From the IMG/VR virus record IMGVR_UViG_2778261498_000008, positions 1 through 33,311 of that record: a stretch of DNA of 33,311 nt; one strand, 5' to 3'. Positions within the stretch are counted from its first letter, which is position 1, and every line of letters begins with the position of its first letter. This document shows positions 5,032 through 33,304 of this stretch, in pieces. A program made the translations under genes and the position numbers. The notes below the pieces were generated by a model. The model was given only the letters and a program-made list of their open reading frames with translations, ran no database searches and had not been told where the DNA came from. Source of the stretch: a virus. Taxonomy: Duplodnaviria; Heunggongvirae; Uroviricota; Caudoviricetes.

Positions 5032-5262
5032 ATGGCAAACCGCAAACAGCACCGCGCTATCGCGGAGCGTCGTCACATCCAGACTGAAATCAACCGCAGA
5101 CTTTCCCGCGCATTCCGCGTCGCTAAAATCATGCACATCAATATGCTGCATGAGCGTAGCTGCGAACTTTCAAACCTCTATTCATCCGCTGTTTTCAGCT
5201 ATCTGGCGGATGATCTGCGCGAGCTTCAGCAGCTCATCCAGCAGCAAAACAAACTCCATTAA
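5032..5262 (+). CDS. Hypothetical basic protein (76 aa)
   Basis: ATG ORF after the long structured intergenic region; Arg/Lys-rich N-terminus; function unknown. Confidence 0.5.
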   Translation: MANRKQHRAIAERRHIQTEINRRLSRAFRVAKIMHINMLHERSCELSNLYSSAVFSYLADDLRELQQLIQQQNKLH

Positions 5263-5334
5263 TTCCTGTTCCGGGCCTTTCCTGCACCTTGCGGCGGGAG
5301 GCCTTCGCACATCTGTAGTAAAGAGAATTGCAGC

Positions 5335-5724
5335 ATGATTGACGCTCATGACTTCACAAGATGGGTGCGCACACAGGACACCCGTCTGGCTCCCGTTCTT
5401 CAGGGATTATTTGATCTTTACATCCGTGGTCGTGACAACAGAGCACGCACTACAAAACCGGAGAATGCGGACACCCTTTATTTCACAGTAGACGACTGCT
5501 ACCGCGTGGACTTCACACCACACGGGCTGGCGTTGCACTGCCTGACACCACACGGCGAATCACTGCTGGCGTATTACGACTCCCCGGCCTCCGTATTCGC
5601 GGCAATGCTGGCGCATCGCACTGCTGGCGGGTGTGCCTCGCTGAGTGAATACACCGCTGAATTTAACCGCCTTTCCGCCATCTTCTCGCAGGAGTGGCAG
5701 CGCGTGACGGGATACCAGCCATGA
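5335..5724 (+). CDS. Hypothetical protein (129 aa) immediately upstream of, and coupled to, gene A
   Basis: Stop overlaps the A start (ATGA at 5721-5724). Confidence 0.5.
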   Translation: MIDAHDFTRWVRTQDTRLAPVLQGLFDLYIRGRDNRARTTKPENADTLYFTVDDCYRVDFTPHGLALHCLTPHGESLLAYYDSPASVFAAMLAHRTAGGCASLSEYTAEFNRLSAIFSQEWQRVTGYQP

Positions 5725-8528
5725 GCGAGTTTGCATGGAGCTGGAATGAACCACGGCCAGCCATTGATCCGGCCAGATTTACGGAGCGCAGGCAGGAAAC
5801 TGAAACCGACCTGCAACGCGCCATCCGTTACTACCTTGAGGCGGACAAAAGGGCACAGGAAGAACAGGAAGCGAAGGAAGAAGCCTTTTTCGCACAATCC
5901 GCCATGGGTAAAAAACTCATGGCATCCCTTGAGGAAGCCGGACAGCGTGAAAAGCTGGCACAGAGCATCATCAGTAAGCGCCGGGCAACAGAACAAGACC
6001 CGGTAGCCCGTGCCTTTGCCACACTAAAGGCACTACCTGTTTATCTGCGTGAACCACTGAGCCGCCACCTCTCTTTCCTGCGCAAAAAACAGGAAGCCGA
6101 TCGCCAGAAAGGTAAAAAGAGCTGGCAGGCGGAACGCTATGCACGCGGACCCCTGCGCAAAATATTCGAACGTCTGGATCGCACTGACGGACGCTGGCTG
6201 ACACCGGGTTATCGCTCCCTTGCCGGGCGCGAACGCCTGGACGATTTGCTTTACCTGCCGCAGCTCAACAAGCACCAGATACAGACGCTGGCCACCATGA
6301 CCGCGGCGATGTTCAGCAGCACCTTCGAAACACTCTGCGATGGCTTTGGTGCCAGAGATGGCGAGCTGACCATGGATGTAATGTTGAAGGCTTACCGGAT
6401 GCTGGCTCGTATCGCATTACGCCTGCACATCATGCCGCCACATTACGAAGCCCTGAACAAGAGCGAACCGGATACGGAACTGCTGCCGGGCGCAATCCTT
6501 CGCCTGACCTGTGCGGACTGGTGGAAACGCAAACTGTGGCTGTTACGTTGCGAGTGGAGAGAAGAACAACTCCGCGCCGCCTGTCTGGTTTCCAGAAAAA
6601 CATCGCCTTATCTGAGCCAGGACGCGTTAAGCGAGTTTCGCGCACAGCGCGAGAAAACACGCGATTTCCTGAAAAGTTTCATGCTGGAAAACGAAGACGG
6701 GTTCACGATTGATCTCGAGACAGTGTATTACGCGGGAGTAAGTAACCCGGTTCACCGTAAGGCAGAAATGATGGCCACCATGAAGGGGCTGGAACTTCTG
6801 GCCGAAGCCCGTGGTGACAAAGCGGTGTTTCTGACTGTCACCTGCCCGTCAAAATACCACGCAACAACGGAGAACGGTCATCCGAACCCCAAATGGAACG
6901 GGGCCACCATGCGCGACTCCAGCGACTACCTGGTTAACACGTTTTTTGCGGCGGTCCGCAAAAAACTGAACCGCGACGGCCTGCGCTGGTATGGCATCCG
7001 CACGGTGGAGCCTCACCATGACGGCACCGTACACTGGCATATGATGGTCTTTGCCCATCCGGAAGAAATCGACACCATTGTGTCCCACACCCGCGATATT
7101 GCCATTCAGGAAGATCGTCACGAGCTGGGCGATGATATTACTCCGCGCTTTAAGGCGGAGTATGTAGACGGCTCAAAAGGCACGCCAACCAGCTACATCG
7201 CCACCTACATCGGAAAGAACCTGGACAGCCGCGCCGCGGATGGCATCGACCCGAAAACGGGCAAACCACGCGTTGACCACGAAACCGGAAAATCAATGGC
7301 CGAGAGCGTGGAGCGCGCCATCGGCTGGGCGCGCCTTCACCGGGTCCGCCAGTTCCAGTTCTTTGGCATCCCCTCCCGTCAGGTGTGGCGTGAACTCCGC
7401 CGCCTTGCCAGCCAGATGGCACGCAACCCGGAAGGCCCGCAACGGCTGAAGGATGACGCAATGGATGCGGTACTCGCTGCCGCTGATGCCGGATGTTTTG
7501 CCACCTATATAGAGAAACAGGGCGGCGTACTTGTTCCACGCAAGGACTACCTGATTCGCACCGCCTACGACCTCGCCGATGAGCTGAACGATTACGGCGA
7601 ACAGAGCGTACAGATTTACGGGATCTGGTCACCACTCATCGGGGAATCCTCCCGTGTGTGCACGCATCCGGATAACTGGAAGCTGGTAAGACGTAAACCG
7701 GAAGCGGAAGACAGCGCCCGCGAAAATGGTTTTGACCTTCAGGGCGGCCCTGCCGCCCCTTGGACTCGTGGCAATAACTGTCCCCGTGTACAGGAAACGG
7801 ACAACAACGGGACAGAACAGCCGGAAGAACGGTCAGCACCGTGGCCGCAGCTCCCTGACGGCGTTGAAGTGAACGAATGGATGCGCTCACTGAAACGGCA
7901 CGAACGCCGGGCGCTGATGCGTTCGCTTCGGCTTCGTGACAAACAGGCAAAAAACAGCAGTGATGAAATGCAGAGCTGGACACAGAGCCGCAAACAGCAG
8001 CGGCCTTTGCCTGATAACCACGAATTACTCGCTAAAGAATGGCGGGAATCTGCCGAATCTCTCGGCCTGCATATCGGTGAACAGCAGATGCAGCACCTGT
8101 TACGGGGCGGCAGCCTGTACGTTGACGGCAGCATCATTGCACCGCAGGGATTTGAAATTGTACGCAAACCGGATACCCGCCCGGACAGCCGAATCACGCA
8201 GCTCTGGCAGCGCCTGAGCCGTAATCACGGCGTAAGCAGCACAGAGATCCGCCATAACCCGGTCGCCAGCTATCTGGAACAACTGGGGGCATCAGACCCC
8301 GAAGCCGCCGCACGTCTGGCATCCACACTTCAGCAGGACCAGAACACCATGAAAACCCCCGTTACCGTGCTTTCTGACATGTTGCGCGCCATCCGTGACG
8401 CAGAGCACGCACAGAGAATCAGTGAAACCACTGAGCGCGCCCACCGCAAAGCAGACCTGCTGCGGGGTAGCCTGACCAGTGGAAACAAAAAAACAGACAG
8501 AAACGGGATTCACAAATCCCGTAAATGA
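5721..8528 (+). CDS. A: Rolling-circle replication initiation endonuclease (P2 gpA family)
   Basis: Contains an HUH-type metal-binding motif (HWHMMVFAHP) and a tandem-tyrosine segment (SYIATYIGKN) typical of gpA-type nickases; sits after the early operon as in P2. ATG 5721 chosen over the upstream in-frame track start (5694). Confidence 0.9.
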   Translation: MSEFAWSWNEPRPAIDPARFTERRQETETDLQRAIRYYLEADKRAQEEQEAKEEAFFAQSAMGKKLMASLEEAGQREKLAQSIISKRRATEQDPVARAFATLKALPVYLREPLSRHLSFLRKKQEADRQKGKKSWQAERYARGPLRKIFERLDRTDGRWLTPGYRSLAGRERLDDLLYLPQLNKHQIQTLATMTAAMFSSTFETLCDGFGARDGELTMDVMLKAYRMLARIALRLHIMPPHYEALNKSEPDTELLPGAILRLTCADWWKRKLWLLRCEWREEQLRAACLVSRKTSPYLSQDALSEFRAQREKTRDFLKSFMLENEDGFTIDLETVYYAGVSNPVHRKAEMMATMKGLELLAEARGDKAVFLTVTCPSKYHATTENGHPNPKWNGATMRDSSDYLVNTFFAAVRKKLNRDGLRWYGIRTVEPHHDGTVHWHMMVFAHPEEIDTIVSHTRDIAIQEDRHELGDDITPRFKAEYVDGSKGTPTSYIATYIGKNLDSRAADGIDPKTGKPRVDHETGKSMAESVERAIGWARLHRVRQFQFFGIPSRQVWRELRRLASQMARNPEGPQRLKDDAMDAVLAAADAGCFATYIEKQGGVLVPRKDYLIRTAYDLADELNDYGEQSVQIYGIWSPLIGESSRVCTHPDNWKLVRRKPEAEDSARENGFDLQGGPAAPWTRGNNCPRVQETDNNGTEQPEERSAPWPQLPDGVEVNEWMRSLKRHERRALMRSLRLRDKQAKNSSDEMQSWTQSRKQQRPLPDNHELLAKEWRESAESLGLHIGEQQMQHLLRGGSLYVDGSIIAPQGFEIVRKPDTRPDSRITQLWQRLSRNHGVSSTEIRHNPVASYLEQLGASDPEAAARLASTLQQDQNTMKTPVTVLSDMLRAIRDAEHAQRISETTERAHRKADLLRGSLTSGNKKTDRNGIHKSRK

Positions 8529-8629: not shown

Positions 8630-9589
8630 ATGAAAATTCACATCGACGACGGCTCCACCAACATCAAGCTGGCATGGACTGAGAACGGCGAACGCCGCAA
8701 CGCCATCAGCCCGAACAGCTTCAAGTCGGAATGGTCTGCGCCGTTCGGTGGCACGCAGCCCGCGAACTACATGCTTGATGGCGTGCGCTATGGTTTTGAT
8801 CCGGTCAGCGATCGCTTTGTCCAGACGACCGACACGCAATACCAATACAGCGATGTGAATGTCATTGCCATTCATCACGCGCTGGTCAAATCAGGCATCA
8901 CGCCACAGGAGGTGGATGTGGTTGTCACCCTGCCACTGAGCGAGTATTTCGACACAAACGCACAGCCGGACATGGCCAACATCAACCGCAAAAAAGCGAA
9001 CGTTATGCGCCCGGTGGAGTACCAGAACGGCGAAGCATTCACTATCCGTAACGTGCGGGTTATGCCTGAATCCATTCCGGCTGGCTTTAAGGCACTGGCT
9101 GACATGAGTCCGTTTGAATCCCTGCTGATTGTGGATTTGGGCGGAACCACGCTGGATGTGGCAAAAGTTCAGGGGCAACTGGCAGGTATCAGCCAGGTGT
9201 TTTGCGATCCACACGTAGGCGTTTCTCTGATGGCCGATGCCGTACTGTCGGTGATGGCCACTAACGGTATGCGCACCAGTCACCACATCGCCAATACCAT
9301 TATCGAACATCGCCATGATGAAGCCTGGCTGCGCCAGCACATCCACAATGACGCGCATTACGCCAGCCTGATGGCGGTTATTCGTGAAAAGGAAGAAACA
9401 CTGAAACAACGCGTGATCCGCGCGCTGGCGGGTTTTTCGGGTTACGGGCGGGTGATGGTTGTCGGTGGCGGGGCGGAGATTGTGGCACCCGCTATCCGCG
9501 AAGCCTGCGGAGTTAATGCGAATTTCATCGCGGACGGGGTGCCACAGTTTGCTCTGGTTAATGGGCTGTACGCAATGGACAAGGAGTAA
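8630..9589 (+). CDS. parM: Actin-like segregation ATPase, ParM/StbA family
   Basis: N-terminus MKIHIDDGSTNIKLAW...ISPNSFK...YSDVNVIAIHHAL and later VMPESIPAG, LIVDLGGTTLDV and VMVVGGGAE closely parallel plasmid R1 ParM as recalled; AAGGAAAAG SD upstream. Confidence 0.85.
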   Translation: MKIHIDDGSTNIKLAWTENGERRNAISPNSFKSEWSAPFGGTQPANYMLDGVRYGFDPVSDRFVQTTDTQYQYSDVNVIAIHHALVKSGITPQEVDVVVTLPLSEYFDTNAQPDMANINRKKANVMRPVEYQNGEAFTIRNVRVMPESIPAGFKALADMSPFESLLIVDLGGTTLDVAKVQGQLAGISQVFCDPHVGVSLMADAVLSVMATNGMRTSHHIANTIIEHRHDEAWLRQHIHNDAHYASLMAVIREKEETLKQRVIRALAGFSGYGRVMVVGGGAEIVAPAIREACGVNANFIADGVPQFALVNGLYAMDKE

Positions 9590-9593
9590 ACCA

Positions 9594-9905
9594 ATGACGA
9601 CTCCAACCAGACGGATAAGTTTCTATCTGAAGCCCGCCGCCGTCAAGAACGAAGGCGAAGCATGCGCCTGGCTGGACAGCCTTACACCAGAAGCCCGCAA
9701 AAGCGGCCAACGCGTGGCTTTTCTGGCCGGGCTGGCACTTCTGAAAATGAATCCAGCAGAGGCTTACCGACTGGCTGCATGGGCTGACGATGAGGCGTTA
9801 TCGGTGACACAAACCAGGACAGAACGCCCCGTGTCACAGCCAGTACCAACCACACAGATAACCAGTCAGATGGCAGGGAATATCCGGGCATTATTTCCTG
9901 AATGA
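9594..9905 (+). CDS. parR: ParR/StbB-like centromere-binding adaptor
   Basis: 4 bp after the parM stop with AAGGAG SD; product shares the R1 ParR pattern as recalled (RRISFYLKP..., LDS, AFLAGLALL, C-terminal IRALFPE versus R1 ILRSLFPKE). Confidence 0.65.
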   Translation: MTTPTRRISFYLKPAAVKNEGEACAWLDSLTPEARKSGQRVAFLAGLALLKMNPAEAYRLAAWADDEALSVTQTRTERPVSQPVPTTQITSQMAGNIRALFPE

Positions 9906-11265: not shown

Positions 11266-11646
11266 ATGATTAAAGTCTCTGTCCACAATGACATAGAACT
11301 CCCCGCAGTTGCTCGTAAATATGCACATGCTTTGCAGTCATGGAAAAACGGCGGATCTTTACCCTCAGTCTTTGGCAACGAAGGGCAGTGGGAAGATAGC
11401 GGGCGTCTTCGTGATTCTTTTGTTTTTAAGATTCACATTCGTTTACCTGATGAACAGCCGTGGCCTGCAAAGCTACCTGCCGCCTCGCGTAAATCAAACA
11501 GTTATCTTGTTTACTCCCGCCATTTCTTATATCCAGATAAGTATCAGCTAATCAGCATTATGACACCCAATGCGCATGAGTTAGCCCGTACATCCTACAT
11601 GGCAGAAATTGAGCGCAGAGCAGAAGAGTTCCAGTCTTCTTTTTGA
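11266..11646 (+). CDS. YafO-family toxin homologue (ribosome-dependent mRNA interferase family)
   Basis: 126-aa product matches E. coli YafO as recalled in several blocks: LPSVFGNEG vs LPDIFGRD; HIRLPDEQPWPAKLPAASRKSNSYLVYSRH vs HIHLANENNPFPPQLRQFSRTNDEAHLVYCQG; C-terminal LISIMTPNAHELAR...AEEF vs LLIAILKPEPHKLAR...AEAF. 9 bp after the upstream gene. Confidence 0.7.
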   Translation: MIKVSVHNDIELPAVARKYAHALQSWKNGGSLPSVFGNEGQWEDSGRLRDSFVFKIHIRLPDEQPWPAKLPAASRKSNSYLVYSRHFLYPDKYQLISIMTPNAHELARTSYMAEIERRAEEFQSSF

Positions 11647-21975: not shown

Positions 21976-22872
21976 ATGCCCGCCGTTGACCTTTCACAGT
22001 TACCGGAACCCGCCATCATCGCGGAGCCTGACTTTGAGGCAATTCTGGCTGACACAAAGGCCATGATGATTGCGTCCTATCCTGCCGAACAGCGTGAAGC
22101 CGTCTCCGCCGCGCTGGAGCTGGAATCGGAACCCCTGAACGTTATCGCTCAAACCATGTCTTTTCGTGAAATGCTGTTACGCCAGCGGGTTAACGAGGGC
22201 GCACGCGCCTGCATGTTAAGCCACGGTTCAGGGACAAACCTGGACAACCTCGCGGGCAATATGAACACAAAGCGCCTGGTTATCACTCCGGCAACGGATA
22301 CCACCGACGCGGTGATGGAGAGCGACACCTCGCTGAGATTGCGGGCGCAACGGGCGTATGACGGCCTGAGTGTTGCTGGCCCGTCAGGTGCATACGAGTA
22401 TTTTGCACGCAGCGCCAGCGGTCTGGTGCGTGATGCGCGGGCCATCAGCCCGTCTCCGGCCTGTGTGACGGTCTCCATCCTGTCCACTGAAGGCGACGGC
22501 ACAGCAACGGAGGCGTTGCTTAATACCGTTCGCGCCGTTCTGAATGCAGAGGATACCCGCCCGGTGGCCGACCGCCTGACCGTACAGAGCGCCAGAATCG
22601 TGACATGGCGGCTGAATGCAAAACTGTACTTTTACCCCGGCCCGGAATCTGAACCTATTCTTGCGGCGGCGGAATCGTCGTTCAGGAAGTGGCTGGCTGA
22701 GCAGGGGCTTATCGGTCAGGACGTGGCGTTGTCCGCCATTGCTGCCGCACTGCATGTGCACGGAGTGCAGCGTGTGGAGATAACCGAACCCACGCAGAAC
22801 ATAGTTATCAGCGACACCCAGGCAGCGCGCTGTGAGTCATTCAGTATCAGCGAGGGCGGGCGCAATGAGTGA
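21976..22872 (+). CDS. J: Baseplate protein (P2 gpJ family)
   Basis: 298-aa product in the V-W-J-I order, length as P2 gpJ. Confidence 0.85.
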   Translation: MPAVDLSQLPEPAIIAEPDFEAILADTKAMMIASYPAEQREAVSAALELESEPLNVIAQTMSFREMLLRQRVNEGARACMLSHGSGTNLDNLAGNMNTKRLVITPATDTTDAVMESDTSLRLRAQRAYDGLSVAGPSGAYEYFARSASGLVRDARAISPSPACVTVSILSTEGDGTATEALLNTVRAVLNAEDTRPVADRLTVQSARIVTWRLNAKLYFYPGPESEPILAAAESSFRKWLAEQGLIGQDVALSAIAAALHVHGVQRVEITEPTQNIVISDTQAARCESFSISEGGRNE

Positions 22873-23395
22873 TTCGCTGTTACCGCCATCAGCCAGTAAT
22901 TTCATGCGTTGTGCCGAAGCCGTCGGAACACGCATTACAGGCATTCCGGTAGACCTCAATACGCTGTGGTCGCCGGACACCTGCCCGGTGCATCTGCTGC
23001 CCTATCTCGCCTGGGCGTTTTCCGTTGACCGCTGGGATCGCAACTGGCCGGAAGAGACAAAGCGACAGGTGATTCGTGACGCATGGCTGATACACCGACA
23101 CAAAGGGACCATCAGCGCACTGCGCCGGGCCATTGAGCCGCTGGGATACCTCATTCGCGTGTCTGAATGGTGGGAGTTCGGCGGGGAACCGGGAACATTT
23201 ACCGTTGAAGTCGGCACACTGGACAGCGGCGTGACGGAGGAAATGTATCTGGAAATGGAGCGGTTGATTGCTGATGCCCGCCCGGTCAGCCGCCACCTGA
23301 CAGGGCTGAATCTCATTCAGGAGATCCAGGGGGATATTTTTGCGGCGGCAGCAACTTACGACGGTGAAGTCACCACCATTTATCCGGACGATTAA
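22865..23395 (+). CDS. I: Baseplate protein (P2 gpI family)
   Basis: Strong match to P2 gpI as recalled (LLPYLAWAFSVDRWD, HKGTI, WWEFGGEPGTF, EMERLIADA). ATG 22865 overlaps the J stop. Confidence 0.9.
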   Translation: MSDSLLPPSASNFMRCAEAVGTRITGIPVDLNTLWSPDTCPVHLLPYLAWAFSVDRWDRNWPEETKRQVIRDAWLIHRHKGTISALRRAIEPLGYLIRVSEWWEFGGEPGTFTVEVGTLDSGVTEEMYLEMERLIADARPVSRHLTGLNLIQEIQGDIFAAAATYDGEVTTIYPDD

Positions 23396-23397
23396 GC

Positions 23398-24762
23398 ATG
23401 AGTACCACGATACGAAAATTTAAAACCATTATCACTGATACTGGTGCCAAAAAATTAGCTCAGGCAGCCGCGCCAGATGGTAAGCCAGTCCGCCTGACAC
23501 ATATGGCCGTGGGCGACGGTGGCGGCACGTTGCCCACACCAGACAGCAAGCAGACCCACCTTGTGCATGAGGTGTGGAGACATACCGTTAATCGCATCAC
23601 CCAGGACACAACACATCAGAACCGCATTATTGCGGAGCTGGTTATTCCCCCTGAAACGGGCGGATTCTGGATCCGGGAAATTGGTGTATTTGATGAGCAC
23701 GGCGATTTGATCGCGGTGGGCAATACTGCCGAAAGTTACAAGCCAACCGTTGCCGAAGGGTCCGGACGTGCACAAACATTCCGCATAATTCTGTCCATAT
23801 CCACTGCAGCAATAGTGGAACTGACGATAGACAAAAGCACAGCGATGGCCTCCATGGATTACGTGGATGAAGCAATCAAAGAACACGAAAAATCCCGTAA
23901 TCACCCTGACGCAACCCTGTCAGAAAAAGGTTTTGTCAGACTTAGTAATGATACTGACAGTGACAGCGAGACAGAAGCCGCAACCCCTGCCGCTATAAAG
24001 AAGGCTATAAAAATTGCAAGTGAAAAATTTACCGTACAGGACGCAACCACAACACAAAAAGGTATTGTTCAGTTAAGTAACGATACTGACAGTGAAAGCG
24101 AAACAGAAGCTGCAACTCCCAAAGCAGTCAAGGCTGCATATGACCTGGCCGACGGGAAATATACTGCGCAGGATGCCACCACGACACAAAAAGGTATTGT
24201 TCAGTTAAGTAGCGATACTGACAGTGAAAGCGAAACGGAAGCTGCCACACCAAAGGCGGTTAAGGCGATTAAAGCTGCTCTTGATAAAAAACAACCACTG
24301 AATGACATGCTGACGGCACTAAGTAAATTAATGCCTGCCGGAAATGCATTTCCGTATTTTGACGCGGATAAAAAGATTAGTCTGGCAAGCATTTCAGAAA
24401 TTGCCAGACAGTTTATTTCGCTCGATACACTCTATTCCATGCAGGAATTTCTGGTGACGCCTGATCTAATAGCAAGGCGAATCAGATCGCATAGTGCGAC
24501 CTTTGAACCTGATGTTGGTAATGTATTTCTTGCCGCATATATGAGGCCAGCAGATGATTTCACTATGACAGCCCGTGGCCGCATGGTAGATGGTCGTTAT
24601 TTAAGGGATATTAATATTGAATTAAAGCCCGACATGAAAACGCTGATATTTAATGTTGATGATATTGGTACAAGCTCATTCCCTGGCAGTTACGCTGCAC
24701 TGTACGGATATATAGGTGCAATAACCGGATACGAAATTGGCCTCTTTATCAGATTCGCATAA
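23398..24762 (+). CDS. H: Tail fibre protein (P2 gpH-like N-terminus, fibre repeats, divergent C-terminal domain)
   Basis: Conserved N-terminal baseplate-attachment region, three tandem copies of the phage tail-fibre repeat (QKGIVQLSxDTDSESETEAATPKAVK), then an AT-rich distinct C-terminal domain. 454 aa, shorter than P2 gpH as recalled. Confidence 0.85.
   Translation: MSTTIRKFKTIITDTGAKKLAQAAAPDGKPVRLTHMAVGDGGGTLPTPDSKQTHLVHEVWRHTVNRITQDTTHQNRIIAELVIPPETGGFWIREIGVFDEHGDLIAVGNTAESYKPTVAEGSGRAQTFRIILSISTAAIVELTIDKSTAMASMDYVDEAIKEHEKSRNHPDATLSEKGFVRLSNDTDSDSETEAATPAAIKKAIKIASEKFTVQDATTTQKGIVQLSNDTDSESETEAATPKAVKAAYDLADGKYTAQDATTTQKGIVQLSSDTDSESETEAATPKAVKAIKAALDKKQPLNDMLTALSKLMPAGNAFPYFDADKKISLASISEIARQFISLDTLYSMQEFLVTPDLIARRIRSHSATFEPDVGNVFLAAYMRPADDFTMTARGRMVDGRYLRDINIELKPDMKTLIFNVDDIGTSSFPGSYAALYGYIGAITGYEIGLFIRFA
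23923..24300 (+). repeat. Three tandem ~132-bp (44-codon) repeats inside the tail-fibre gene
   Basis: Units begin at about 23923, 24055 and 24187 with near-identical DNA (ggtattgttcagttaagt...gatactgacagtgaaagcgaaac). Confidence 0.7.
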
Positions 24763-24782
24763 TGAAAAAGGTGGTTAGATAG

Positions 24783-25358
24783 ATGAATATTTTGTCAATT
24801 AAAAATCCGGTTTACATATCTCATGACGCGATCAGTTGTCAGGTGTTGTTTGAAGGGGAAACAGAGTTTATCCCATACACCGCAACCGCCACAGATACCG
24901 CAGCAACAGGCCGGGCCGTCTGGCAGGCGCTTCAGGATGGCCTTGCCGGAGAAATTGCACCGTTTGTGATGACAGAAGCGCAGCTGGAGCGCATCCGTCA
25001 GAGTAAGCATGATGAAATCAGTCGCTGGCGTGATGACCAGGAAAACGCCGGAATTATTTTTGAGTGGAATGGCCACCGCTGGGACGGTGGAAAAATTTCA
25101 CGAAGCCGCCTGGCACCGGTGATTGCTGTGGCACAGGCGGGTGCGCTTCCGGCGGGCTTTTTCTGGACTGACGCGGATAACCAGGACGTCACCCTCACGC
25201 CGGAAGAGCTGGTACAGCTGGACGCTGCCATGTTGCAGGCGATGGTTATCCGTGGTTTTCAGATACACGAACGCCAGCGGCAGATGAAAGAGGACGTGGC
25301 AGGACTGGACAGTGCCGACGCCGTTCGCCGTTATGTTGTGGGATGGGGCGATGAGTAA
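24783..25358 (+). CDS. Putative tail fibre assembly chaperone (gpG position)
   Basis: 191-aa ORF immediately downstream of the fibre gene; assigned by position and size; no sequence motif verified. Confidence 0.6.
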   Translation: MNILSIKNPVYISHDAISCQVLFEGETEFIPYTATATDTAATGRAVWQALQDGLAGEIAPFVMTEAQLERIRQSKHDEISRWRDDQENAGIIFEWNGHRWDGGKISRSRLAPVIAVAQAGALPAGFFWTDADNQDVTLTPEELVQLDAAMLQAMVIRGFQIHERQRQMKEDVAGLDSADAVRRYVVGWGDE

Positions 25359-25728
25359 ATTCACCACTCCTGCCGTGCTGGAAATGCTCGATGATTACCG
25401 CTGGCGACTGGTTGAGCCGTTTGAGTTCTGGCTGACGGATAACCCCGTGGATGTGATTGCGGTTCCTGCGGGGTATGTCACAGACCTTGCCAGCGTACCG
25501 CGCATTCTCTGGTCGGTATTTCCGCCACACGGTCGTTACGCCAAAGCGGCGATTATTCACGACTGGCTGTACGACAACGCGCTGCGGACAAAGCACGAAG
25601 CGGACAAGATATTTCTTGATGCGATGTGTGTACTGGGTGTTCCCCGCTGGCGCAGGATGCTGATGTATTGTGCGGTCAGATTGTTCGGACGGGGAAATTA
25701 CTTTCGGGAAAAAATTACCCACCTCTGA
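25351..25728 (+). CDS. DUF1353-like hypothetical protein at the Z/fun position
   Basis: 125-aa ORF overlapping the stop of the preceding gene; between the fibre module and the tail block where P2 carries Z/fun. Family assignment is from memory and weak. Confidence 0.5.
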   Translation: MSKFTTPAVLEMLDDYRWRLVEPFEFWLTDNPVDVIAVPAGYVTDLASVPRILWSVFPPHGRYAKAAIIHDWLYDNALRTKHEADKIFLDAMCVLGVPRWRRMLMYCAVRLFGRGNYFREKITHL

Positions 25729-25778
25729 AACTGAGATATAAAATGATTTTATATCAACAGGTTATTATGTGTGACAAT

Positions 25779-25801
25779 AAAGCGCGGATATACCGCGCTT
25801 T
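25779..25801. terminator. Perfect 9-bp hairpin AAAGCGCGG-atata-CCGCGCTTT between convergent genes
   Basis: Read directly; lies between the DUF1353-like gene (+) and gpU (-), flanked by A/T runs, so likely a bidirectional terminator. Confidence 0.55.
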
Positions 25802-25812
25802 CCAGTAATAAA

Positions 25813-26307
25813 TTAAAAAAAACCTTTTATCGCACCGGAGACACCATTCATAGCTGATGAAGCCCCACTCTTAAACCTGCTCAACATATCACTGAACGAT
25901 GAGGATTGCAGGCGTTCGCGCATGTCCTCATCACAGCGTTGCAGCGTCAGTGAAAATTCTATCTTTTTCGCCTTACCGTAGCGGTCAAATTCAGAGCGCG
26001 TAATATTCTGGCCGGTCAGAACATACATACCGTAGATTTGCCCAACACCATCAATCAGGGGCCACGGAAGCCCGGTATAGGCCTGCGTGGTTAACAGTGT
26101 AAGGGACACCTCACCGCCCGTAATTTCAGGGTAAAGCACACCGGAAAGCGTGATCTGATCTTCCCCTGCCCCGATATACTGCCAGCTTGCTGAACGGTTT
26201 ATCCGCTCATTCTTCACATGCCGCCAGCTCCTGCTCTGCTGCAACTGCTGATGAGGCAGCGTGCGCAGCTCAAAAACAAACATGCCGTAGATCATCATCA
26301 TGGTCAT
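25813..26307 (-). CDS. U: Tail protein U (P2 gpU family)
   Basis: ATG at 26305-26307 (MTMMMIYGMFVFE...), 7 nt downstream of the tape-measure stop on the same strand. The track ORF extends upstream over T in another frame and was trimmed. Confidence 0.8.
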   Translation of the reverse strand: MTMMMIYGMFVFELRTLPHQQLQQSRSWRHVKNERINRSASWQYIGAGEDQITLSGVLYPEITGGEVSLTLLTTQAYTGLPWPLIDGVGQIYGMYVLTGQNITRSEFDRYGKAKKIEFSLTLQRCDEDMRERLQSSSFSDMLSRFKSGASSAMNGVSGAIKGFF

Positions 26308-26314
26308 GACTCCT

Positions 26315-29134
26315 TTAATCTTTATCGTAGAAGCTACTACGTCCGGCACGCTCCCGGCGTTCCATTTCTGCCCTGACAGCCTCGCCAACCAACTTTGCCA
26401 GTTCGCGGGGTGTCTGTGTGACAACGTTATGAAGGTGAACATGAATTTCACCGCCAAATCTGGCTGGCTCCTGGCGGCGTGCATCTCCGCCACCGGATGG
26501 CACAACAGGGCGCCGGATGGCTTCTGCCACCTGTCCTGTCCCTGCGGCAACAACGGGCGGCAACGCCGGGGGTGGTGTAACGGTAACGGCTTGCGGAATG
26601 CTGACTGCCGGTGTGGCTTTACTGAGCCGCTCAACCTGACGTTCACGCCATTCACCACGAACGGCCAGCGCACGGGGCAGGTTCTTAAAGACAATATCGC
26701 CGGGACCGATGCGTTTTTTAGCGTCCTTTGCTTCATTCAGCAGGCCACCGGTGTTATCGGCAATTTTGCCAAGCCTGCGCATGGTTCCGGTATTGCCATC
26801 CGTAAGCGGTTTGTTGTCTTTGGGTTTATCGTCTTTTTTGTCGCCGGGTTTATCTGACGGGGCCGGGCTGGGAGTCCATGGTTTCTGAACCATTTTCTTG
26901 AGAGCAGGATCCCATTCCCACATCACAGGAGCCTTTGAAGCGTCCTCCATTTTTTTTCTCGCCCGCTCCGCTTCATCCGGAAGCACGCCCAGCTTCTCCA
27001 GTATCCATCCCAGCGTATCCAGCAACATTTTCGCAGGCGTCAGCACAAGCTCCAGCGCACCGCCAAGAACCCTGCCGAATACTTCGCCGGCACTGGTGCA
27101 TTGATCCAGTGTTTCCTTGCTGGATTCCATCGGTGACAGCAGTGACATGAACCAGTTAAACACCTGGCTGATACCACTGCCGATCATGTCGAAAATGGGG
27201 CTGAACTGTTCAAAGGTTTCACGCAGCGGGGTCAGCCGCTCCATAATTCCGCTGAACACCCCGGCAAAAAATGCCTTAATCGGGTCCCAGTATTTCCAGA
27301 TAAGAACAGCCGCAGCCACAAGAGCCGCCGCAATCAGGCCCACCGGACTGAACAACGCCCCGAGAGCACCACCCAGCAGGGAGACGGAGCCTGTCACCAT
27401 ACCCCACAGTGCAGGCAGCACCCGGACAACGTTCATGGAGCTGGTCAGAAGAGAAAAGCCCAGACGCAACGTGGCCAGCTTCCCGTAAAGCACGCCGATA
27501 ACCAGCGACAGGGAGCCCACCGTTGCCGTTGTTGCCAGCAGTGCACCGCCTGCGATCAGTAACTGGCGGGTGAGTGCCGGATGTGCCTGCGCCAGCGCTG
27601 TTACCTTTGCGACCACCCGCGTGAGCCACTGTGTGGCAGAACGCAGCGGCCCGTCAACCAGATCGGCAATGCGAATACGCAGCCCTTCCCATGCGCTGCC
27701 AAGTGATTTCAGGTCGCCGTCAAGGTTGTCAGCCATGACCTTTGCCGTGCGCTCTGCTTCACCACGTGCAGCTTCCAGTTCTTTTCTCAGTTTGGGTAAG
27801 GAGCCGTTACCCGCCGCGTCAACGAGGGCCATAAATGATGTGAAGGCCTCTTCCCCGGCGATATCCTTAAAGAACGATACCCGGTCAACTTCCCCGTATT
27901 TGCGGGTGGCTTTATAAAGGTCGGACAGCACATCCTCCATCGGGCGCATTTTGCCGTTCGCATCGGAGACAGATACCCCAAGCTCTTTCAGCGCCTCTGC
28001 TGCTGCCTTTGGAGGTGATGCCAGGCGGGAAAGGCTGGCACGCATCGCCGTCCCTGCATCGCTCCCCCTGATCCCCATATTCGCCAGCACGCCCGCCATC
28101 GCGGCAGCCTGTTCCAGCGATATCCCCAGCTTGCCCGCCACCGGCCCCGCGTATTTCATGGTTTCCCCCAGCGCGCGGAGGTCGGTATTGGTACGGGTGA
28201 ACGCGGCGGTAAGGGTATCGCCGACCCGATCCATCTGGTCAGCAGAAAGACCAAACTGCGTGAGAATATTTGAACCAATATCGGCAGTTTCGCCGAGGTC
28301 CATGCCGCTGGCCGTTGCCATGTTCAGCACACCAGGTAGCGCCGCCTGAATGGCCTCCGGCGTGAAGCCCGCCATGGCAAGAAATGCCTGACCACTGGCG
28401 GCATCGCCTGCGGTGAACTGCGTTTCAGAGCCGAGTTTTAACGCCTGTTCGCGCAGCGCCTTAAACTGCGGGCTGGTTTTGTCGATACGCGTCAGCGCCT
28501 GCACACGCGACATCTCTTTCCCGAACCCGATGGCGGGCTGCAGAAAGCGTCCGGCAGCATAGCCGCCGGCCACAGCGGCACCGACAGCCATCGCGCCGCC
28601 GGTTTTCAGTTTTCCGGCGGTTTCCTGCGCCCGTGAATAACGTTCACGCGCCTGCGTGACACGGGTCAGCGCCTGCCGTTCACGTTCAAGCTGATTGTTG
28701 TATTGTTCGGTGCGCCGGATAGCCTGCTGGATGGTGTTGTCGCTGCCCGTCAGGGAAATGCCATGGCGCTTCAGCTCTGCACCCAGCTCGCGCATTTTTT
28801 CTATTTCACGCGTGCGGGTTTCATTCAGGCGTTCAAGTCGGGTGCTTAACTGCTGCATCAGCTTTTGTTGTTTTTCGCTGAGCACTGTACCCGTGCGTTG
28901 TAACTGATTAAGGGCGTTAAGCTGGCGTCGTGCTTTCACGATGCCCGCATCCGCTTTACTGACAGCGTCACGGGCGCGCTCAAATGAACGCGCCTGACGC
29001 TCGAGATTTTTGATCGCCCCCTGCGTTCGCTGGATGGCGTCACCAAACTGCCCCATCAGGCGGCGGGCGTTTTCGGTAGGCCGGGTCAGCCTGTCAACAG
29101 CACTGAAAGCGACCCGGATATCAAGAGTCTTCAT
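26315..29134 (-). CDS. T: Tail tape measure protein (P2 gpT family)
   Basis: About 940 aa, Ala/Gly-rich with hydrophobic central segments, downstream of E/E'. ATG at 29132-29134 chosen; the track start at 29179 is a TTG. Confidence 0.85.
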   Translation of the reverse strand: MKTLDIRVAFSAVDRLTRPTENARRLMGQFGDAIQRTQGAIKNLERQARSFERARDAVSKADAGIVKARRQLNALNQLQRTGTVLSEKQQKLMQQLSTRLERLNETRTREIEKMRELGAELKRHGISLTGSDNTIQQAIRRTEQYNNQLERERQALTRVTQARERYSRAQETAGKLKTGGAMAVGAAVAGGYAAGRFLQPAIGFGKEMSRVQALTRIDKTSPQFKALREQALKLGSETQFTAGDAASGQAFLAMAGFTPEAIQAALPGVLNMATASGMDLGETADIGSNILTQFGLSADQMDRVGDTLTAAFTRTNTDLRALGETMKYAGPVAGKLGISLEQAAAMAGVLANMGIRGSDAGTAMRASLSRLASPPKAAAEALKELGVSVSDANGKMRPMEDVLSDLYKATRKYGEVDRVSFFKDIAGEEAFTSFMALVDAAGNGSLPKLRKELEAARGEAERTAKVMADNLDGDLKSLGSAWEGLRIRIADLVDGPLRSATQWLTRVVAKVTALAQAHPALTRQLLIAGGALLATTATVGSLSLVIGVLYGKLATLRLGFSLLTSSMNVVRVLPALWGMVTGSVSLLGGALGALFSPVGLIAAALVAAAVLIWKYWDPIKAFFAGVFSGIMERLTPLRETFEQFSPIFDMIGSGISQVFNWFMSLLSPMESSKETLDQCTSAGEVFGRVLGGALELVLTPAKMLLDTLGWILEKLGVLPDEAERARKKMEDASKAPVMWEWDPALKKMVQKPWTPSPAPSDKPGDKKDDKPKDNKPLTDGNTGTMRRLGKIADNTGGLLNEAKDAKKRIGPGDIVFKNLPRALAVRGEWRERQVERLSKATPAVSIPQAVTVTPPPALPPVVAAGTGQVAEAIRRPVVPSGGGDARRQEPARFGGEIHVHLHNVVTQTPRELAKLVGEAVRAEMERRERAGRSSFYDKD

Positions 29135-29659
29135 TGTCGGTATTCCCGCTACGAAGTGCCGCCCGCTCACGCCAGGCAACCACTTCGCCGGGGGACATCA
29201 TGAAGATTTCGGCGGGCGACCAGTTAAAAACAACGGCGATATCTGCCACAAGATCTTCGATGTGCTCAAAGCACACCAGGCTGATTACGCTGCCGTCTCC
29301 TGCGCGCTCTTCCCGCCAGAGTCCGGCTCGCTCATAAAATTTACGGCCACTGCACACAACTGGATAAAGTCGCGTGACGACATTTTTTTAAGCGTCACTT
29401 CATCCAGTCGCGGCGACGTCACGCGGGGCAACAGCGTGAACATGGCATCCGTTTTCAGATTCAGCACGTCAGTCAGTGACAGACCGCGCAGGGAACCAGC
29501 CTGCTCAATCGCCCCGGTGATTTCCACGTACGTGATTTTTTCACCGCCACGCTCAACCGGACGGAGCAGTTTTACGCCACGTTCAGCGGCTGCATCCTCA
29601 CCGGTCGCCACATCATCCGCCACGCTGTTATCACGGGTTTCAGTATCGGTGTTTTTCAT
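29121..29659 (-). CDS. E+E' fusion made by programmed -1 frameshift at an A7 run (plus-strand T7 at 29383-29389)
   Basis: The -1 frame is open from the A7 run to a stop at 29121-29123; in-frame reading is CTT AAA AAA ATG. Matches the conserved chaperone frameshift of P2-like tail operons. Confidence 0.55.
29285..29659 (-). CDS. E: Tail assembly chaperone E (P2 gpE family)
   Basis: 124-aa ORF with AGGAGA SD, between tube and tape-measure genes. Confidence 0.8.
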   Translation of the reverse strand: MKNTDTETRDNSVADDVATGEDAAAERGVKLLRPVERGGEKITYVEITGAIEQAGSLRGLSLTDVLNLKTDAMFTLLPRVTSPRLDEVTLKKMSSRDFIQLCAVAVNFMSEPDSGGKSAQETAA

Positions 29660-29713
29660 GGAGGTCTCCTTTTCAGTCAGAGGCGACGCACTGCGCCGCC
29701 TGCATATTACTTA

Positions 29714-30226
29714 TCAGCCAAGCCCGAGCGCGGAACGGATGCGATCGGGCACAATGTCCCTGCCGTCCTTGCGGTAAATGAAGTTCAGCAGGTCGATTTC
29801 CCAGACCGGACGATCGTCAACGCTCATCTTGTAGTAGGTGTTTTTGATGGTGTACGTGTGCGAGGTGGCTTCCCCCTGTTTGGCCTCCCCCGTATCAATT
29901 TCCGTCACACGTCCGCGCATCTCAACCTCATACAGTTCGCTTTCGTCGTCGGTGTAGTATTCACCGACAAAACGCAGCAGCGTCCCGTCAATGGTTCCGC
30001 CGTATTTGAGAAACAGGGCACGCACGGCGCCGCCCATCACAAAGCTGGCATCAAGTGCAGAATCGTCCAGACCGAGGTCGATACTGACCGCCCCCATCAT
30101 GCCACCGCCACGAAAACTCTCAGTCTTGCGCGTCAGTTTTGGCAAAGTGACAGACGTCACCTTACCCACTTCATTCTCGCCATCCACAAACAGCGTAAAA
30201 AAGCGAAGATTTTTTGGTACAGCCAT
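29714..30226 (-). CDS. FII: Tail tube protein (P2 gpFII family)
   Basis: 170-aa product with VTLPKLTRK and GRVTEIDTGEAKQGE blocks matching gpFII as recalled. Confidence 0.85.
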   Translation of the reverse strand: MAVPKNLRFFTLFVDGENEVGKVTSVTLPKLTRKTESFRGGGMMGAVSIDLGLDDSALDASFVMGGAVRALFLKYGGTIDGTLLRFVGEYYTDDESELYEVEMRGRVTEIDTGEAKQGEATSHTYTIKNTYYKMSVDDRPVWEIDLLNFIYRKDGRDIVPDRIRSALGLG

Positions 30227-31410
30227 TAAGCACCTCCCAGCACCGCAAAGGCAGGGCCAAAGAATTCATCTGTAAACGTCTGGTAAAGCTCCATGTCTTC
30301 CAGTGGCGGAGCGGGCGTGTATTTGTAGCGAATACGCACACGTCCCTGACGTAAATTCGTGGTGCCGTTATCCACCACGTCATACCAGCACTCCGCACCA
30401 ATCAGTTTCCCGGCAGTAACCAGCGAATCCAGTTTTGCCCTGATGGCGCTGATAACATCCTTCACGTTCGCAGGTGTCAGTGGACTGTCGATGGTTTCAA
30501 ACTGCGCTTCCGCAATTGAATCAGCCAGCACCTGTGCGGTTCGGGTATACACCTCAAAGATGTAGGCGTTCGTTTCCGGTGTGCGGTTGCCCCAGAAGCG
30601 GAACCCGTTGCGACGAATAATGGTCGTGATTTCTTTGTTGTTGAGGCTGTTGGCATCGCTGTCTTCGGCCTGCAACGACCAGAACACATGCCTGGACATC
30701 CCCAGCACATTTTTAACCGGAACGTTGGACAGCGATTTGTGCCAGCCCTGTTCATGGTCAATGTACGCACGAAGGCCGCACGCATAGGCAGGCGCGGGGA
30801 ACGTTTCGTTTTCGCCACTTTTCGGGTTGTAGGCGATGAAGTCCGGCCATAAGAGCATCACTTCACGTTCGTTGAATTTCTGGCGGTAGGTAATCGCTTC
30901 AGCCATCGTGTTACAGCCGTGACATGAGGCATACACAAATGCGCGCAGTTTACCCGCAATCACGCACAGGGATTTTGTCACCGCCTCCGTGTCCAGCTCC
31001 GGCGCGGCCAGAATACGCGGACGGTATCCGATGCTTTCATCCTGCTCTGCAACAAGCAGCGCATACATCCCCGTATAGCTGCCGTCATCCTCAGAACCAC
31101 CGATAACCAGTTGATCCTGCGTCTTTTCGTCTTCTTCTTTGTGTTCAGCCACGCGAACGACGATCACCTTTGTGCTCACCTGGTCTGCGATGGCCTTAAG
31201 CGCACGATAAAGCGTCCCCGTTGTTCCGCATTTTCCCAGCACGTCATTGACGCGGGTCAGCAGTGTGGGCTTGTTCAGCGGGAACAGCTTCGCGTCCGCA
31301 TCATCCGCCGTTGCCACGATACCGATAACGCTGGAATCAACATCGTTAATCGCTGTTACCAGGTCGGTATTTTCCGTAACACGGGCACCATGAAAACGAG
31401 TTTCACTCAT
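30226..31410 (-). CDS. FI: Tail sheath protein (P2 gpFI family)
   Basis: 394-aa product, length and position as gpFI; stop overlaps the FII start. Confidence 0.9.
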   Translation of the reverse strand: MSETRFHGARVTENTDLVTAINDVDSSVIGIVATADDADAKLFPLNKPTLLTRVNDVLGKCGTTGTLYRALKAIADQVSTKVIVVRVAEHKEEDEKTQDQLVIGGSEDDGSYTGMYALLVAEQDESIGYRPRILAAPELDTEAVTKSLCVIAGKLRAFVYASCHGCNTMAEAITYRQKFNEREVMLLWPDFIAYNPKSGENETFPAPAYACGLRAYIDHEQGWHKSLSNVPVKNVLGMSRHVFWSLQAEDSDANSLNNKEITTIIRRNGFRFWGNRTPETNAYIFEVYTRTAQVLADSIAEAQFETIDSPLTPANVKDVISAIRAKLDSLVTAGKLIGAECWYDVVDNGTTNLRQGRVRIRYKYTPAPPLEDMELYQTFTDEFFGPAFAVLGGA

Positions 31411-31567
31411 AGCTTCAGCCCCTTGTATCCGTTAAATGATTCGGCAACAATCATCACCCACCACGCGCGTAATCTCACCCCTGCGCCGTTCTCCCGCCAC
31501 GGCGACAACAAAAAGCAGTAACCCCCTCCGCACGCACATGCGACCATGCCACACAGGGAGGGAGCAG

Positions 31568-32677
31568 ATGACCGACACCACCATGCAATTGCTCAGTCAA
31601 GGCACAGACCCTGTAAAAATGCCGGATTTTGATATTCTCGCGGAGGGTAAAACGCTGTCAGGCGTGGCAGAGCGCCTGATGAGCCTGTCGCTGACCGACA
31701 ACCGGGGATTTGAGGCAGACCAGCTCACCATCACGCTGGATGATGCGGATGGTCAGTTGCAGCTACCGCCACGGGGCGCGCGCCTGAAGGTTCTCATTGG
31801 CTGGAAAGGCGAACCGCTGACAGAAAAAGGCACTTACATTGTTGATGAAATCGCTCACGAAGGACCGCCGGACAGGCTGACTGTTTCGGCCAGAAGCGCA
31901 GATTTTCGGGATGAATTTAACGTTAAACGTGAGGTGTCCTGGCATGATGTGACCGTTGAGCGTGTGGTATCCGCCATCGCTCATCGGTATGGTCTGAAAC
32001 CGCAAATCAGCGAAATGCTGATGGATATCGAAATCGACCACGCCGACCAGACCGAAGAAAGCGACATGTCCTTCCTTACGCGCATGGCGGAAATGCTGGG
32101 CGCAATCACCACGGTAAAAAGCGGCAATCTGTTATTCATCATGCCAGGTGGTGGCGTGAACGCACAGGGCCAGCCGTTGCCCTCGTTCGCCATTACACGC
32201 AGCAGCGGCGATCGCCATCAGTTCCGTATTGCTGACCGCGAGGCTTATACGGGGGTACGCGCCTACTGGCTTGATCTTAATTACGGGAAAAAGAAAAAAG
32301 TCAGCGTAAAACGCCGTAAACCGCCAAAACCCAAAAAGGAGAAAAGCAGCAGCCGTGAAGGTGATTATATGGAAGGCGCGGAAGGCAATGTGTTTGTGTT
32401 ACGCAAGACTTATCAGAACGAGCAGGCAGCAAGACGCGCAGCGGCGGCAAAGTGGCAGCAACTACAACGCGGAGCCGCAGCGTTCTCCATCACGCTGGCG
32501 CGTGGACGTGCAGAACTCTACCCCGAAATGCATGGCACGGTAACAGGATTTAAAAGCGAGATTGATAATCAGGACTGGATTATTGCAAAAGCGGAGCACT
32601 CTATTGATAACAGTGGCTTTACCACGCAGCTTGAGCTTGAAGCAAAAATCCCGGAATGGATAGCAGAAACAGAGTGA
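31568..32677 (+). CDS. D: Tail protein D (P2 gpD family)
   Basis: 369-aa product from ATG 31568 with GGGAGGGAG SD, directly upstream of ogr. Confidence 0.8.
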   Translation: MTDTTMQLLSQGTDPVKMPDFDILAEGKTLSGVAERLMSLSLTDNRGFEADQLTITLDDADGQLQLPPRGARLKVLIGWKGEPLTEKGTYIVDEIAHEGPPDRLTVSARSADFRDEFNVKREVSWHDVTVERVVSAIAHRYGLKPQISEMLMDIEIDHADQTEESDMSFLTRMAEMLGAITTVKSGNLLFIMPGGGVNAQGQPLPSFAITRSSGDRHQFRIADREAYTGVRAYWLDLNYGKKKKVSVKRRKPPKPKKEKSSSREGDYMEGAEGNVFVLRKTYQNEQAARRAAAAKWQQLQRGAAAFSITLARGRAELYPEMHGTVTGFKSEIDNQDWIIAKAEHSIDNSGFTTQLELEAKIPEWIAETE

Positions 32678-32719
32678 GCAACTTAGAATAGCGGCAGCAC
32701 CACGTTAAGGGAGGTCGCT

Positions 32720-32980
32720 ATGTTCCGTTGTCCGCTTTGTGGCGCATCTGCCCGTATCCGCACCAGTCGTCCGGAAAATGATTCAAACACCGTGCGGCAA
32801 AAGTATTACCAGTGTAACAATCTGGAATGCGGCGTATGCTTCTCAACACTGGAAGCTTTCCATAAATTCACATCGAAACATGCCTCCGGCGTTCACTCTT
32901 CAGAAGGTATCCCGTGGCATGAGCTGCCAGCTTCACACAGGGGAAACAATCAGATGAGCTTGCCTTTATCTCAGAATTAA
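32720..32980 (+). CDS. ogr: Late-gene transcriptional activator, Ogr/Delta zinc-finger family
   Basis: MFRCPLCG...YYQCNNLECG has the CxxC...CxxxxC arrangement and matches P2 Ogr as recalled (MFHCPLC...YHQCQNVNC). Carries a C-terminal extension to 86 aa. Confidence 0.8.
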   Translation: MFRCPLCGASARIRTSRPENDSNTVRQKYYQCNNLECGVCFSTLEAFHKFTSKHASGVHSSEGIPWHELPASHRGNNQMSLPLSQN

Positions 32981-33040
32981 CAGGCAGAATTGCCGGAGTA
33001 ACAAAAAAGCGATAGATTACGCGCGGGTGCCTTTCGGCTG

Positions 33041-33304
33041 ATGGTCGGAGGGAATACCCGAAGGCCGGATGTGGAAAGGCCCCGGAAAACATTTCTGTTT
33101 AACCGAGGCCCTAACCGCATTACCTTGACAAGTGAAAGGTTAGCGCCTCTCCGGAAAAGGAGCAAGTGCTATGTCGCAAAAATCGCTTACGGCCATCACG
33201 TTCTGCGTGACGGCAATCCTCATCATCTGGATGCTGCATGGTTCGCTGTGCGAAATACGGATGAGCTTCTGGGGAGCGGAGTTTGCGGCGTTCTTACAGT
33301 GTAA
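33041..33304 (+). CDS. Candidate mok-like overlapping reading frame
   Basis: ORF that starts upstream of the hok-like gene and overlaps it in another frame, ending 7 nt before the hok stop, as in hok/mok/sok loci. The true start is unknown. Confidence 0.35.
   Translation: MVGGNTRRPDVERPRKTFLFNRGPNRITLTSERLAPLRKRSKCYVAKIAYGHHVLRDGNPHHLDAAWFAVRNTDELLGSGVCGVLTV

Follow-up and report, generated by a model that had tools for sequence, protein, structure and literature searches.

The DNA analysed here, hereafter the window, is the whole 33,311-nucleotide stretch of the IMG/VR virus record IMGVR_UViG_2778261498_000008, a P2-family prophage of the P88 type (genus Xuanwuvirus). We studied a small gene on its plus strand at 25351–25728 (ATG at 25351, TGA at 25726–25728), which encodes a 125-amino-acid DUF1353 protein resembling the phospholipase A2 (PLA2) TtaP. 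The original prediction, read from the sequence alone, had placed this gene between G and FI, in the slot where P2 carries the exclusion gene Z/fun, and had taken it for a candidate exclusion or host-range accessory gene.

The DUF1353 gene and its operon

A profile search bore out the family assignment: Pfam PF07087 (DUF1353) matched the protein with E = 8.4e-33 and 112.3 bits against a cut-off of 22.5, and the whole model was covered (profile positions 1–91 of 91). Four E. coli chromosomes are 99.9–100% identical to the window over 24700–25900, and RefSeq labels the identical gene there 'DUF1353 domain-containing protein'. Compared with three E. coli homologues, the gene has a ratio of non-synonymous to synonymous substitution rates (dN/dS) of 0.08–0.19, which indicates a real gene under strong purifying selection; this ratio, together with broad conservation, led us to reject a chance open reading frame (ORF) at 25351–25728. 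Its guanine-plus-cytosine (GC) content of 53.7% (0.537) equals the window mean.

Upstream on the same strand lies a gene for a 191-amino-acid DUF4376 protein (24783–25358; Pfam DUF4376, E = 3.5e-20; PHROG 1141), the tail-fibre assembly chaperone of the cassette described below. In Campylobacter and Alteromonas, fibres require DUF4376 proteins as chaperones (PMC7882524, PMC10579305). The chaperone and DUF1353 genes share an 8-nt start/stop overlap on the plus strand (25351–25358, ATGAGTAA, read from the sequence). The identical overlap recurs in the P1-like, lambdoid and M8 prophage copies and in four further loci (L091–L094), suggesting that translation of DUF1353 is coupled to that of the chaperone. 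No sigma-70-like promoter site was found on the plus strand between 24330 and 25351, and the gene is probably transcribed only with the late fibre operon, so that its product would appear late. The protein has no signal peptide or membrane helix (maximum Kyte–Doolittle score 1.28), contains only two cysteines, and its N-terminus is not hydrophobic.

The operon continues upstream with a gpH-like tail fibre gene of 454 codons (23398–24762, plus strand), whose product has a collar domain at its N-terminus, a unique tip at its C-terminus and three fibre repeats (three Pfam matches to Phage_fiber_2 and one to Phage_tail_fib, E = 2e-53). RefSeq records the fibre gene of the identical prophage as a truncated pseudogene ('missing C-terminus', equivalent to 23398–24267 of the window). 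The ORF is intact over 454 codons in the window, its last ~165 residues being without a known match, and the pseudogene call is probably an annotation artefact.

On the other side lies the 3' end of the tail gene gpU (25813–26322, minus strand; Pfam Phage_P2_GpU, E = 1.6e-38), the last gene of an inverted FI-FII-E-T-U block. Both neighbours originally named were thus wrong: the upstream gene is the DUF4376 gene rather than a Caudo_TAP homologue of gpG, and the downstream gene is gpU on the opposite strand. The prophage runs V, W, J, I, H on the plus strand, followed by FI-FII-E-E'-T-U inverted on the minus strand and then by D and ogr; because the tail block is inverted, the slot is edged by the 3' end of gpU and not by FI. 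The inverted block occupies 25813–31410, with D at 31436–32677 on the plus strand, and the fibre and tail operons converge. The same order is found in P88 and in Citrobacter phage Shae_phiSM, and the inversion relative to P2 appears to be a trait of the genus.

Two inverted repeats separate the convergent genes, and both had been correctly noticed at the outset. A GC-rich hairpin with a 9-bp stem and a 5-nt loop (25779–25801; AAAGCGCGG/ATATA/CCGCGCTTT; -14.2 kcal/mol, z = -5.1) is flanked by the stop codons of DUF1353 (25728) and gpU (25813), with UUUAUUGU after it on the minus strand. Given its place between two convergent operons, it probably acts as a two-way terminator of the fibre and tail operons. 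It was not called by a simple terminator scan, probably because the T run lies partly within the stem. The second repeat, a perfect AT-rich palindrome with 10-bp arms and a 1-nt centre (GATATAAAAT-G-ATTTTATATC), lies exactly at 25735–25755, beginning seven bases past the DUF1353 stop codon. It occurs once in the window, arose in none of 100 shuffles and folds weakly (-6.2 kcal/mol); among 179 loci compared, it is present solely in the identical prophage. The ~180-bp junction that contains it (bases 25695–25900) is confined to four E. coli genomes, those with exactly this prophage.

Relation to the phospholipase TtaP

The gene had been presented as one of unknown function, yet its family has a proven PLA2 among its members. 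TtaP, a 125-amino-acid protein of the typhoid toxin islet of S. Typhi, has the catalytic residues H70, D71 and D85, and the substitution D85A abolishes its activity (PMC11525133). A DUF1353 protein of equal length from S. enterica arizonae aligns with the window protein over 113 residues without a gap, at 65% identity and 81% similarity. Its gene stands directly 3' of a gene for a 269-amino-acid CdtB-like protein, which is the position of ttaP and identifies it as the TtaP orthologue. Aligned without gaps to this orthologue, the window protein keeps H70, D71, Y74 and D85. Among 58 diverse homologues with 40–62% identity, H70 and D71 never vary, and Y74 and D85 reach at least 90% conservation. 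A PLA2-like three-helix core was found as well. On these comparisons, the DUF1353 protein very probably has PLA2 biochemistry.

The likeness to TtaP extends to the same Pfam family, the length, the identical catalytic positions, and the lack of a signal peptide and of disulfide cysteines. The settings differ: ttaP shares a transcript with cdtB, driven by a PhoPQ promoter, and lies beside the gene for the muramidase TtsA within a toxin islet of the chromosome, whereas the window gene closes a late tail-fibre operon of a phage and is coupled to the gene for a DUF4376 chaperone. Compared with the secreted Group XIV PLA2s of Streptomyces violaceoruber (1LWB) and Tuber borchii (4AUP; Phospholip_A2_3), the window protein has no signal or pro-peptide and no four-cysteine disulfide pattern, carries an extra N-terminal beta sub-domain and shows no sequence-level match. 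More generally, the protein matched none of the Pfam PLA2 families at E ≤ 0.01 and no PDB entry at the sequence level. Neither NCBIfam nor PADLOC matched the DUF1353, DUF4376 or fibre proteins, and a literature search on DUF1353 and PF07087 returned no report of a phage function.

The extreme N-terminus (residues 1–7, consensus MSxFTxP, with M1 and F4 at least 90% conserved) is kept even in very distant DUF1353 proteins. A cytoplasmic enzyme would not ordinarily show such conservation, which may point to an element of docking or of the active site. Within the family, CJE0229 of the Campylobacter element CJIE1 had previously been named a putative PLA2, and a Campylobacter phage had been listed among Tox-PLA2 proteins. 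Another protein cluster of 2438 sequences (P0096), considered as TtaP and rejected, lies in a Gp38_N adhesin context.

An exchangeable tail-fibre cassette

Comparison with other elements places the gene within a mobile unit at 24025–25701 on the plus strand, comprising the 3' part of the fibre gene, the DUF4376 gene and DUF1353. This cassette is shared with P1-like phage-plasmids, where it stands in place of the usual fibre end. In the plasmid pMUB-MIN10-2 it matches as a single blastn segment, with 96.8% identity over 1677 nt, that stops nine codons short of the DUF1353 stop. The E. coli strain MIN10 holds the cassette twice, in a chromosomal P2-like prophage and on this P1-like plasmid; the plasmid copy (locus L002, 6011–9450) has the fibre gene split into two overlapping ORFs and a holin gene after DUF1353.

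The same boundaries emerge from the prophage side. P88, Shae_phiSM and a prophage of E. coli RIVM_C037884 are 88–90% identical to the window up to 24079–24267, inside the fibre repeats, and similarity returns at 25882–25886, within the 3' end of gpU, leaving 24267–25882 as a replaced region with no counterpart in P88-like relatives. P88 carries tfa, an inverted tfa'/H' and a DNA invertase at this slot, and in both P88 and Shae_phiSM a different set of fibre tips is accompanied by an invertase and by assembly genes of the Caudo_TAP type. The RIVM_C037884 prophage has tfa and, between tfa and gpU, a serine acetyltransferase gene on the minus strand (locus L005, 5212–5757; GC 0.374). This acetyltransferase is a closer analogue of P2 fun(Z)-type cargo than DUF1353 and possibly modifies a receptor.

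Only four of the 1429 E. coli genomes that match the backbone stretch 22400–27000 carry the cassette, and a megablast search of the cassette against 50,697 phage records gave no match. The DUF4376–DUF1353 pair, again with the 8-nt overlap, also closes the side-fibre module of a lambdoid prophage and the fibre module of another myovirus prophage, and a DUF4376 gene overlaps the DUF1353 start in 39 of the 40 E. coli matches listed. Among cassette copies, similarity runs from inside the chaperone gene to about nine codons short of the DUF1353 stop. The constant part of the cassette is therefore DUF1353 with the C-terminal half of the chaperone, and the fibre tip and the chaperone N-terminus vary. 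Farther afield, the order fibre–DUF4376–DUF1353 is shared by CJE0229 in CJIE1, Fhv_0020 of Francisella phage KIRK and gp31 of Sulfurimonas phage SNW-1, which are about 32–36% identical to the window protein; in SNW-1 the trio lies directly ahead of the sheath gene FI.

As judged from these alignments, DUF1353 came along with the fibre tip and chaperone, not as a separate insertion, and several phage backbones keep it as a conserved accessory of their DUF4376-type fibre modules. We have little doubt that DUF1353 ends a swappable tail-fibre cassette and is not a Z/fun-type insert. Its approximate place on the map, behind the tail-fibre genes and ahead of the other tail genes, is what the gene has in common with P2 fun(Z). 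P2 fun(Z) encodes 528 amino acids at 33% GC (0.328 versus 0.559 in its neighbours) on the opposite strand, between the V-operon terminator and the pF promoter; unlike it, the window gene encodes 125 amino acids at 54% GC inside an operon, on the same strand as the fibre genes and before their terminator. The two proteins show no similarity (BLASTP E = 4.6).

The original prediction therefore holds in part. The interval between fibre and tail genes does vary among Xuanwuvirus relatives, although DUF1353 is not a Z/fun-type insert, and the gene does belong to a host-range (fibre) cassette, although an exclusion function finds neither Fun(Z) similarity nor a PADLOC model. The opposing possibility, that of a conserved component present in all relatives, is likewise half right: the gene is conserved in DUF4376 fibre modules of several backbones, but absent from most relatives.

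Elsewhere, the window carries cargo unusual for a P2-type prophage, namely plasmid-like ParM and partition genes and a YafO-family toxin gene in the early region (8630–9905 and 11266–11646). At the other end (32693–33284 and beyond), a hok/gef-family toxin gene follows ogr. Just past the window end, the matching chromosome has a TM2-domain gene and a Com and DNA methyltransferase pair resembling that of Mu mom.

Candidate roles of the probable phospholipase

DUF1353 is a very large family, with 11,684 representative clusters at E ≤ 0.001. We surveyed its contexts in 82 non-redundant loci from genomes and viral contigs, gathered with a narrow alignment (A2), and counted upstream neighbours over 79 of them. 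The gene directly upstream encodes a DUF4376 or other fibre-family protein in about 7–12 of the 79 loci, an M15 endolysin in four and a muramidase in one, and these proportions are lower bounds because ORF calling was crude and Pfam and PHROG left most neighbours without a match. DUF1353 has a GH108 muramidase within 0.6 kb in the loci L027, L033 and L147 and in the typhoid-toxin locus L018. In the last of these (S. enterica arizonae, 5107–6570), the GH108-type muramidase, presumably ttsA, is 192 nt from the DUF1353 gene. In Shigella phage Sf11, DUF1353 closes an endolysin–holin–spanin cassette, and on one short contig it is fused to a GH24 lysozyme (P0257). Homologues are common in strictly lytic phages, jumbo phages included. 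Two further homologues were seen: a 57%-identical gene on Tepidimonas charontis contig NZ_VJON01000033.1 (L024), and a 65%-identical one in an IMG/VR Salmonella prophage resembling the SopE phage (L161, 205–4875). The latter stands beside the virulence cargo sopE and has no DUF4376 partner; in order, the genes there are a fibre gene with a Collar domain, one for a Macro-domain protein, a Caudo_TAP assembly gene, sopE on the other strand, and DUF1353.

The frequency of homologues in strictly lytic phages suits a lytic-cycle role better than protection of the lysogen, and on balance we lean towards a role in the lytic cycle that acts on envelope lipids. More specifically, we propose, with a probability of roughly 0.4, a late, cytoplasmic membrane-lipid hydrolase that would aid the breach of the envelope at lysis; our preference for lysis over entry is tentative. 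The protein would accumulate late and do no harm as long as the envelope was unbroken. After holin and endolysin had breached the cell, it would cut the sn-2 acyl chain of phosphatidylethanolamine and phosphatidylglycerol, and this cleavage would help the membranes to disintegrate. TtaP itself remains associated with the cells and leaves the envelope of intact cells without a defect; its authors propose that the enzyme is kept latent and might provide the perturbation of the outer membrane on which the muramidase TtsA depends. A phage lipid hydrolase that finishes envelope disruption at lysis is known from mycobacteriophages in the esterase LysB. A lysis cassette with a patatin-like PLA2 has likewise been proposed for envelope disruption in phage WO (PMC9203015). 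The folds of LysB (alpha/beta hydrolase) and of the WO protein (patatin) are unrelated to that of the window protein, and both belong to lysis cassettes, whereas the window gene sits in a fibre cassette.

Several observations weigh against a function in lysis. The gene lies outside the lysis cassette of its own prophage, which is ~6 kb upstream and looks complete, with a holin, an M15 endolysin and DUF2570. The frequency of DUF4376 pairing in E. coli and the gene order recurring in distant phages are easier to reconcile with a physical link to the fibre than with a general role in lysis. The homologue of Salmonella phage Arash was detected in virion preparations, and a lysis phenotype has been reported for no DUF1353 protein. 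Finally, no function can be recognised for most neighbours in the 82 loci, and by our own markers the fibre and lysis links are minorities of eight and six loci, respectively.

These points lead to the explanation that ranks a close second, an entry enzyme borne on the virion, which we consider doubtful. Here the PLA2 would sit on the fibre tip or on a DUF4376 'cap' and loosen the lipids of the target outer membrane at the contact site, much as the PLA2 of parvovirus VP1u helps membrane passage. The outer leaflet of the outer membrane consists of lipopolysaccharide, not phospholipid, which counts against it. In its favour, the pairing and overlap with the chaperone gene are near-obligatory in E. 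coli, the gene moves together with the fibre tip among P2-like, P1-like, lambdoid and other prophages, and the three-gene order persists in distant P2- and Mu-like phages, ahead of the sheath gene in SNW-1; adjacent genes, however, co-transfer through linkage alone, and DUF1353 is far from fibre genes in Fletchervirus, jumbo phages and Sf11. The Arash homologue reached 87.5% coverage with 103 spectra in virion mass spectrometry, but the list is permissive (116 of 272 proteins, RNA polymerase and ribonucleotide reductase among them), and the homologue CBB_456 of phage CBB is absent from a 55-protein virion proteome. The extra N-terminal beta sub-domain (residues 1–45), with the conserved M1 and F4, could form a docking surface, and the DUF1353–lysozyme fusion would also suit a virion-associated wall-degrading enzyme. 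Chaperones of the DUF4376/Tfa type can stay on the fibre (PMC10579305, PMC7882524); against a role in entry, campycins made of a fibre and a DUF4376 chaperone kill without DUF1353. The broader form of the idea is that DUF4376-type fibre modules of P2-, P1-, Mu- and lambda-like phages hold a catalytic PLA2 as a third, virion-delivered component that opens the outer membrane. We regard this as unlikely; if true, bacterial viruses would have a counterpart to the capsid PLA2 of parvoviruses, and it would be the first tail-fibre accessory with lipolytic activity.

Exclusion or lysogenic conversion is a good deal less probable than either role in the lytic cycle. On this account, the gene would be expressed in the lysogen and would either alter the membrane against other phages or serve the host, as TtaP may serve Salmonella. 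The interval between fibre and tail genes does hold cargo in relatives, such as the AT-rich serine acetyltransferase and, in the SopE-phage-like Salmonella prophage, sopE next to DUF1353; TtaP was itself domesticated into a virulence islet under a PhoPQ promoter, and CJE0229 has been discussed as a possible host-affecting PLA2. The window gene, however, lies on the strand of the late fibre operon, translationally coupled to it, ahead of the terminator and without a promoter-like site, and its GC content is that of the backbone (0.537; P2 fun(Z) has 0.328 and the acetyltransferase 0.374). Besides lacking a PADLOC match and Fun(Z) similarity, it has homologues that are frequent in strictly lytic phages, and it varies less than the receptor-specific parts of the cassette and hence does not track receptor type.

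Least likely of all is a non-enzymatic second chaperone for the fibre or the DUF4376 protein: the match to PHROG 1158 'tail assembly chaperone' (E = 2e-48), a label common in GenBank records, and the position after the fibre and its chaperone would suit it, but the label appears to be based on position and no experiment behind it was found in the literature, the invariant H70–D71 and the conserved Y74 and D85 of distant homologues point to catalysis, a 65%-identical relative counts as an active PLA2 (activity having been shown for S. Typhi TtaP), and many homologues lie away from fibre genes. Pfam found DUF1353 alone in the protein, with no Caudo_TAP or DUF4376 domain. In Campylobacter, as described in PMC7882524, a fibre mounted on a pyocin works with a DUF4376 protein alone; folding there thus does not depend on DUF1353, and the catalytic residues argue for an enzyme.

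In summary, the database label 'tail assembly chaperone' is corrected, and TtaP is seen to be the one characterised member of a very large family that alternates between fibre modules and lysis cassettes, its near relatives being standard cargo of exchangeable E. coli phage tail-fibre cassettes. The proximity of a GH108 muramidase to DUF1353 in the typhoid-toxin locus and in three unrelated loci suggests that the ttsA–ttaP pair of the typhoid toxin islet, which would be of phage origin, may descend from a phage lysis cassette. An inducible P2-like prophage, together with P1-like plasmids that carry the same cassette, offers a tractable E. coli system for the role of PLA2 in phages.

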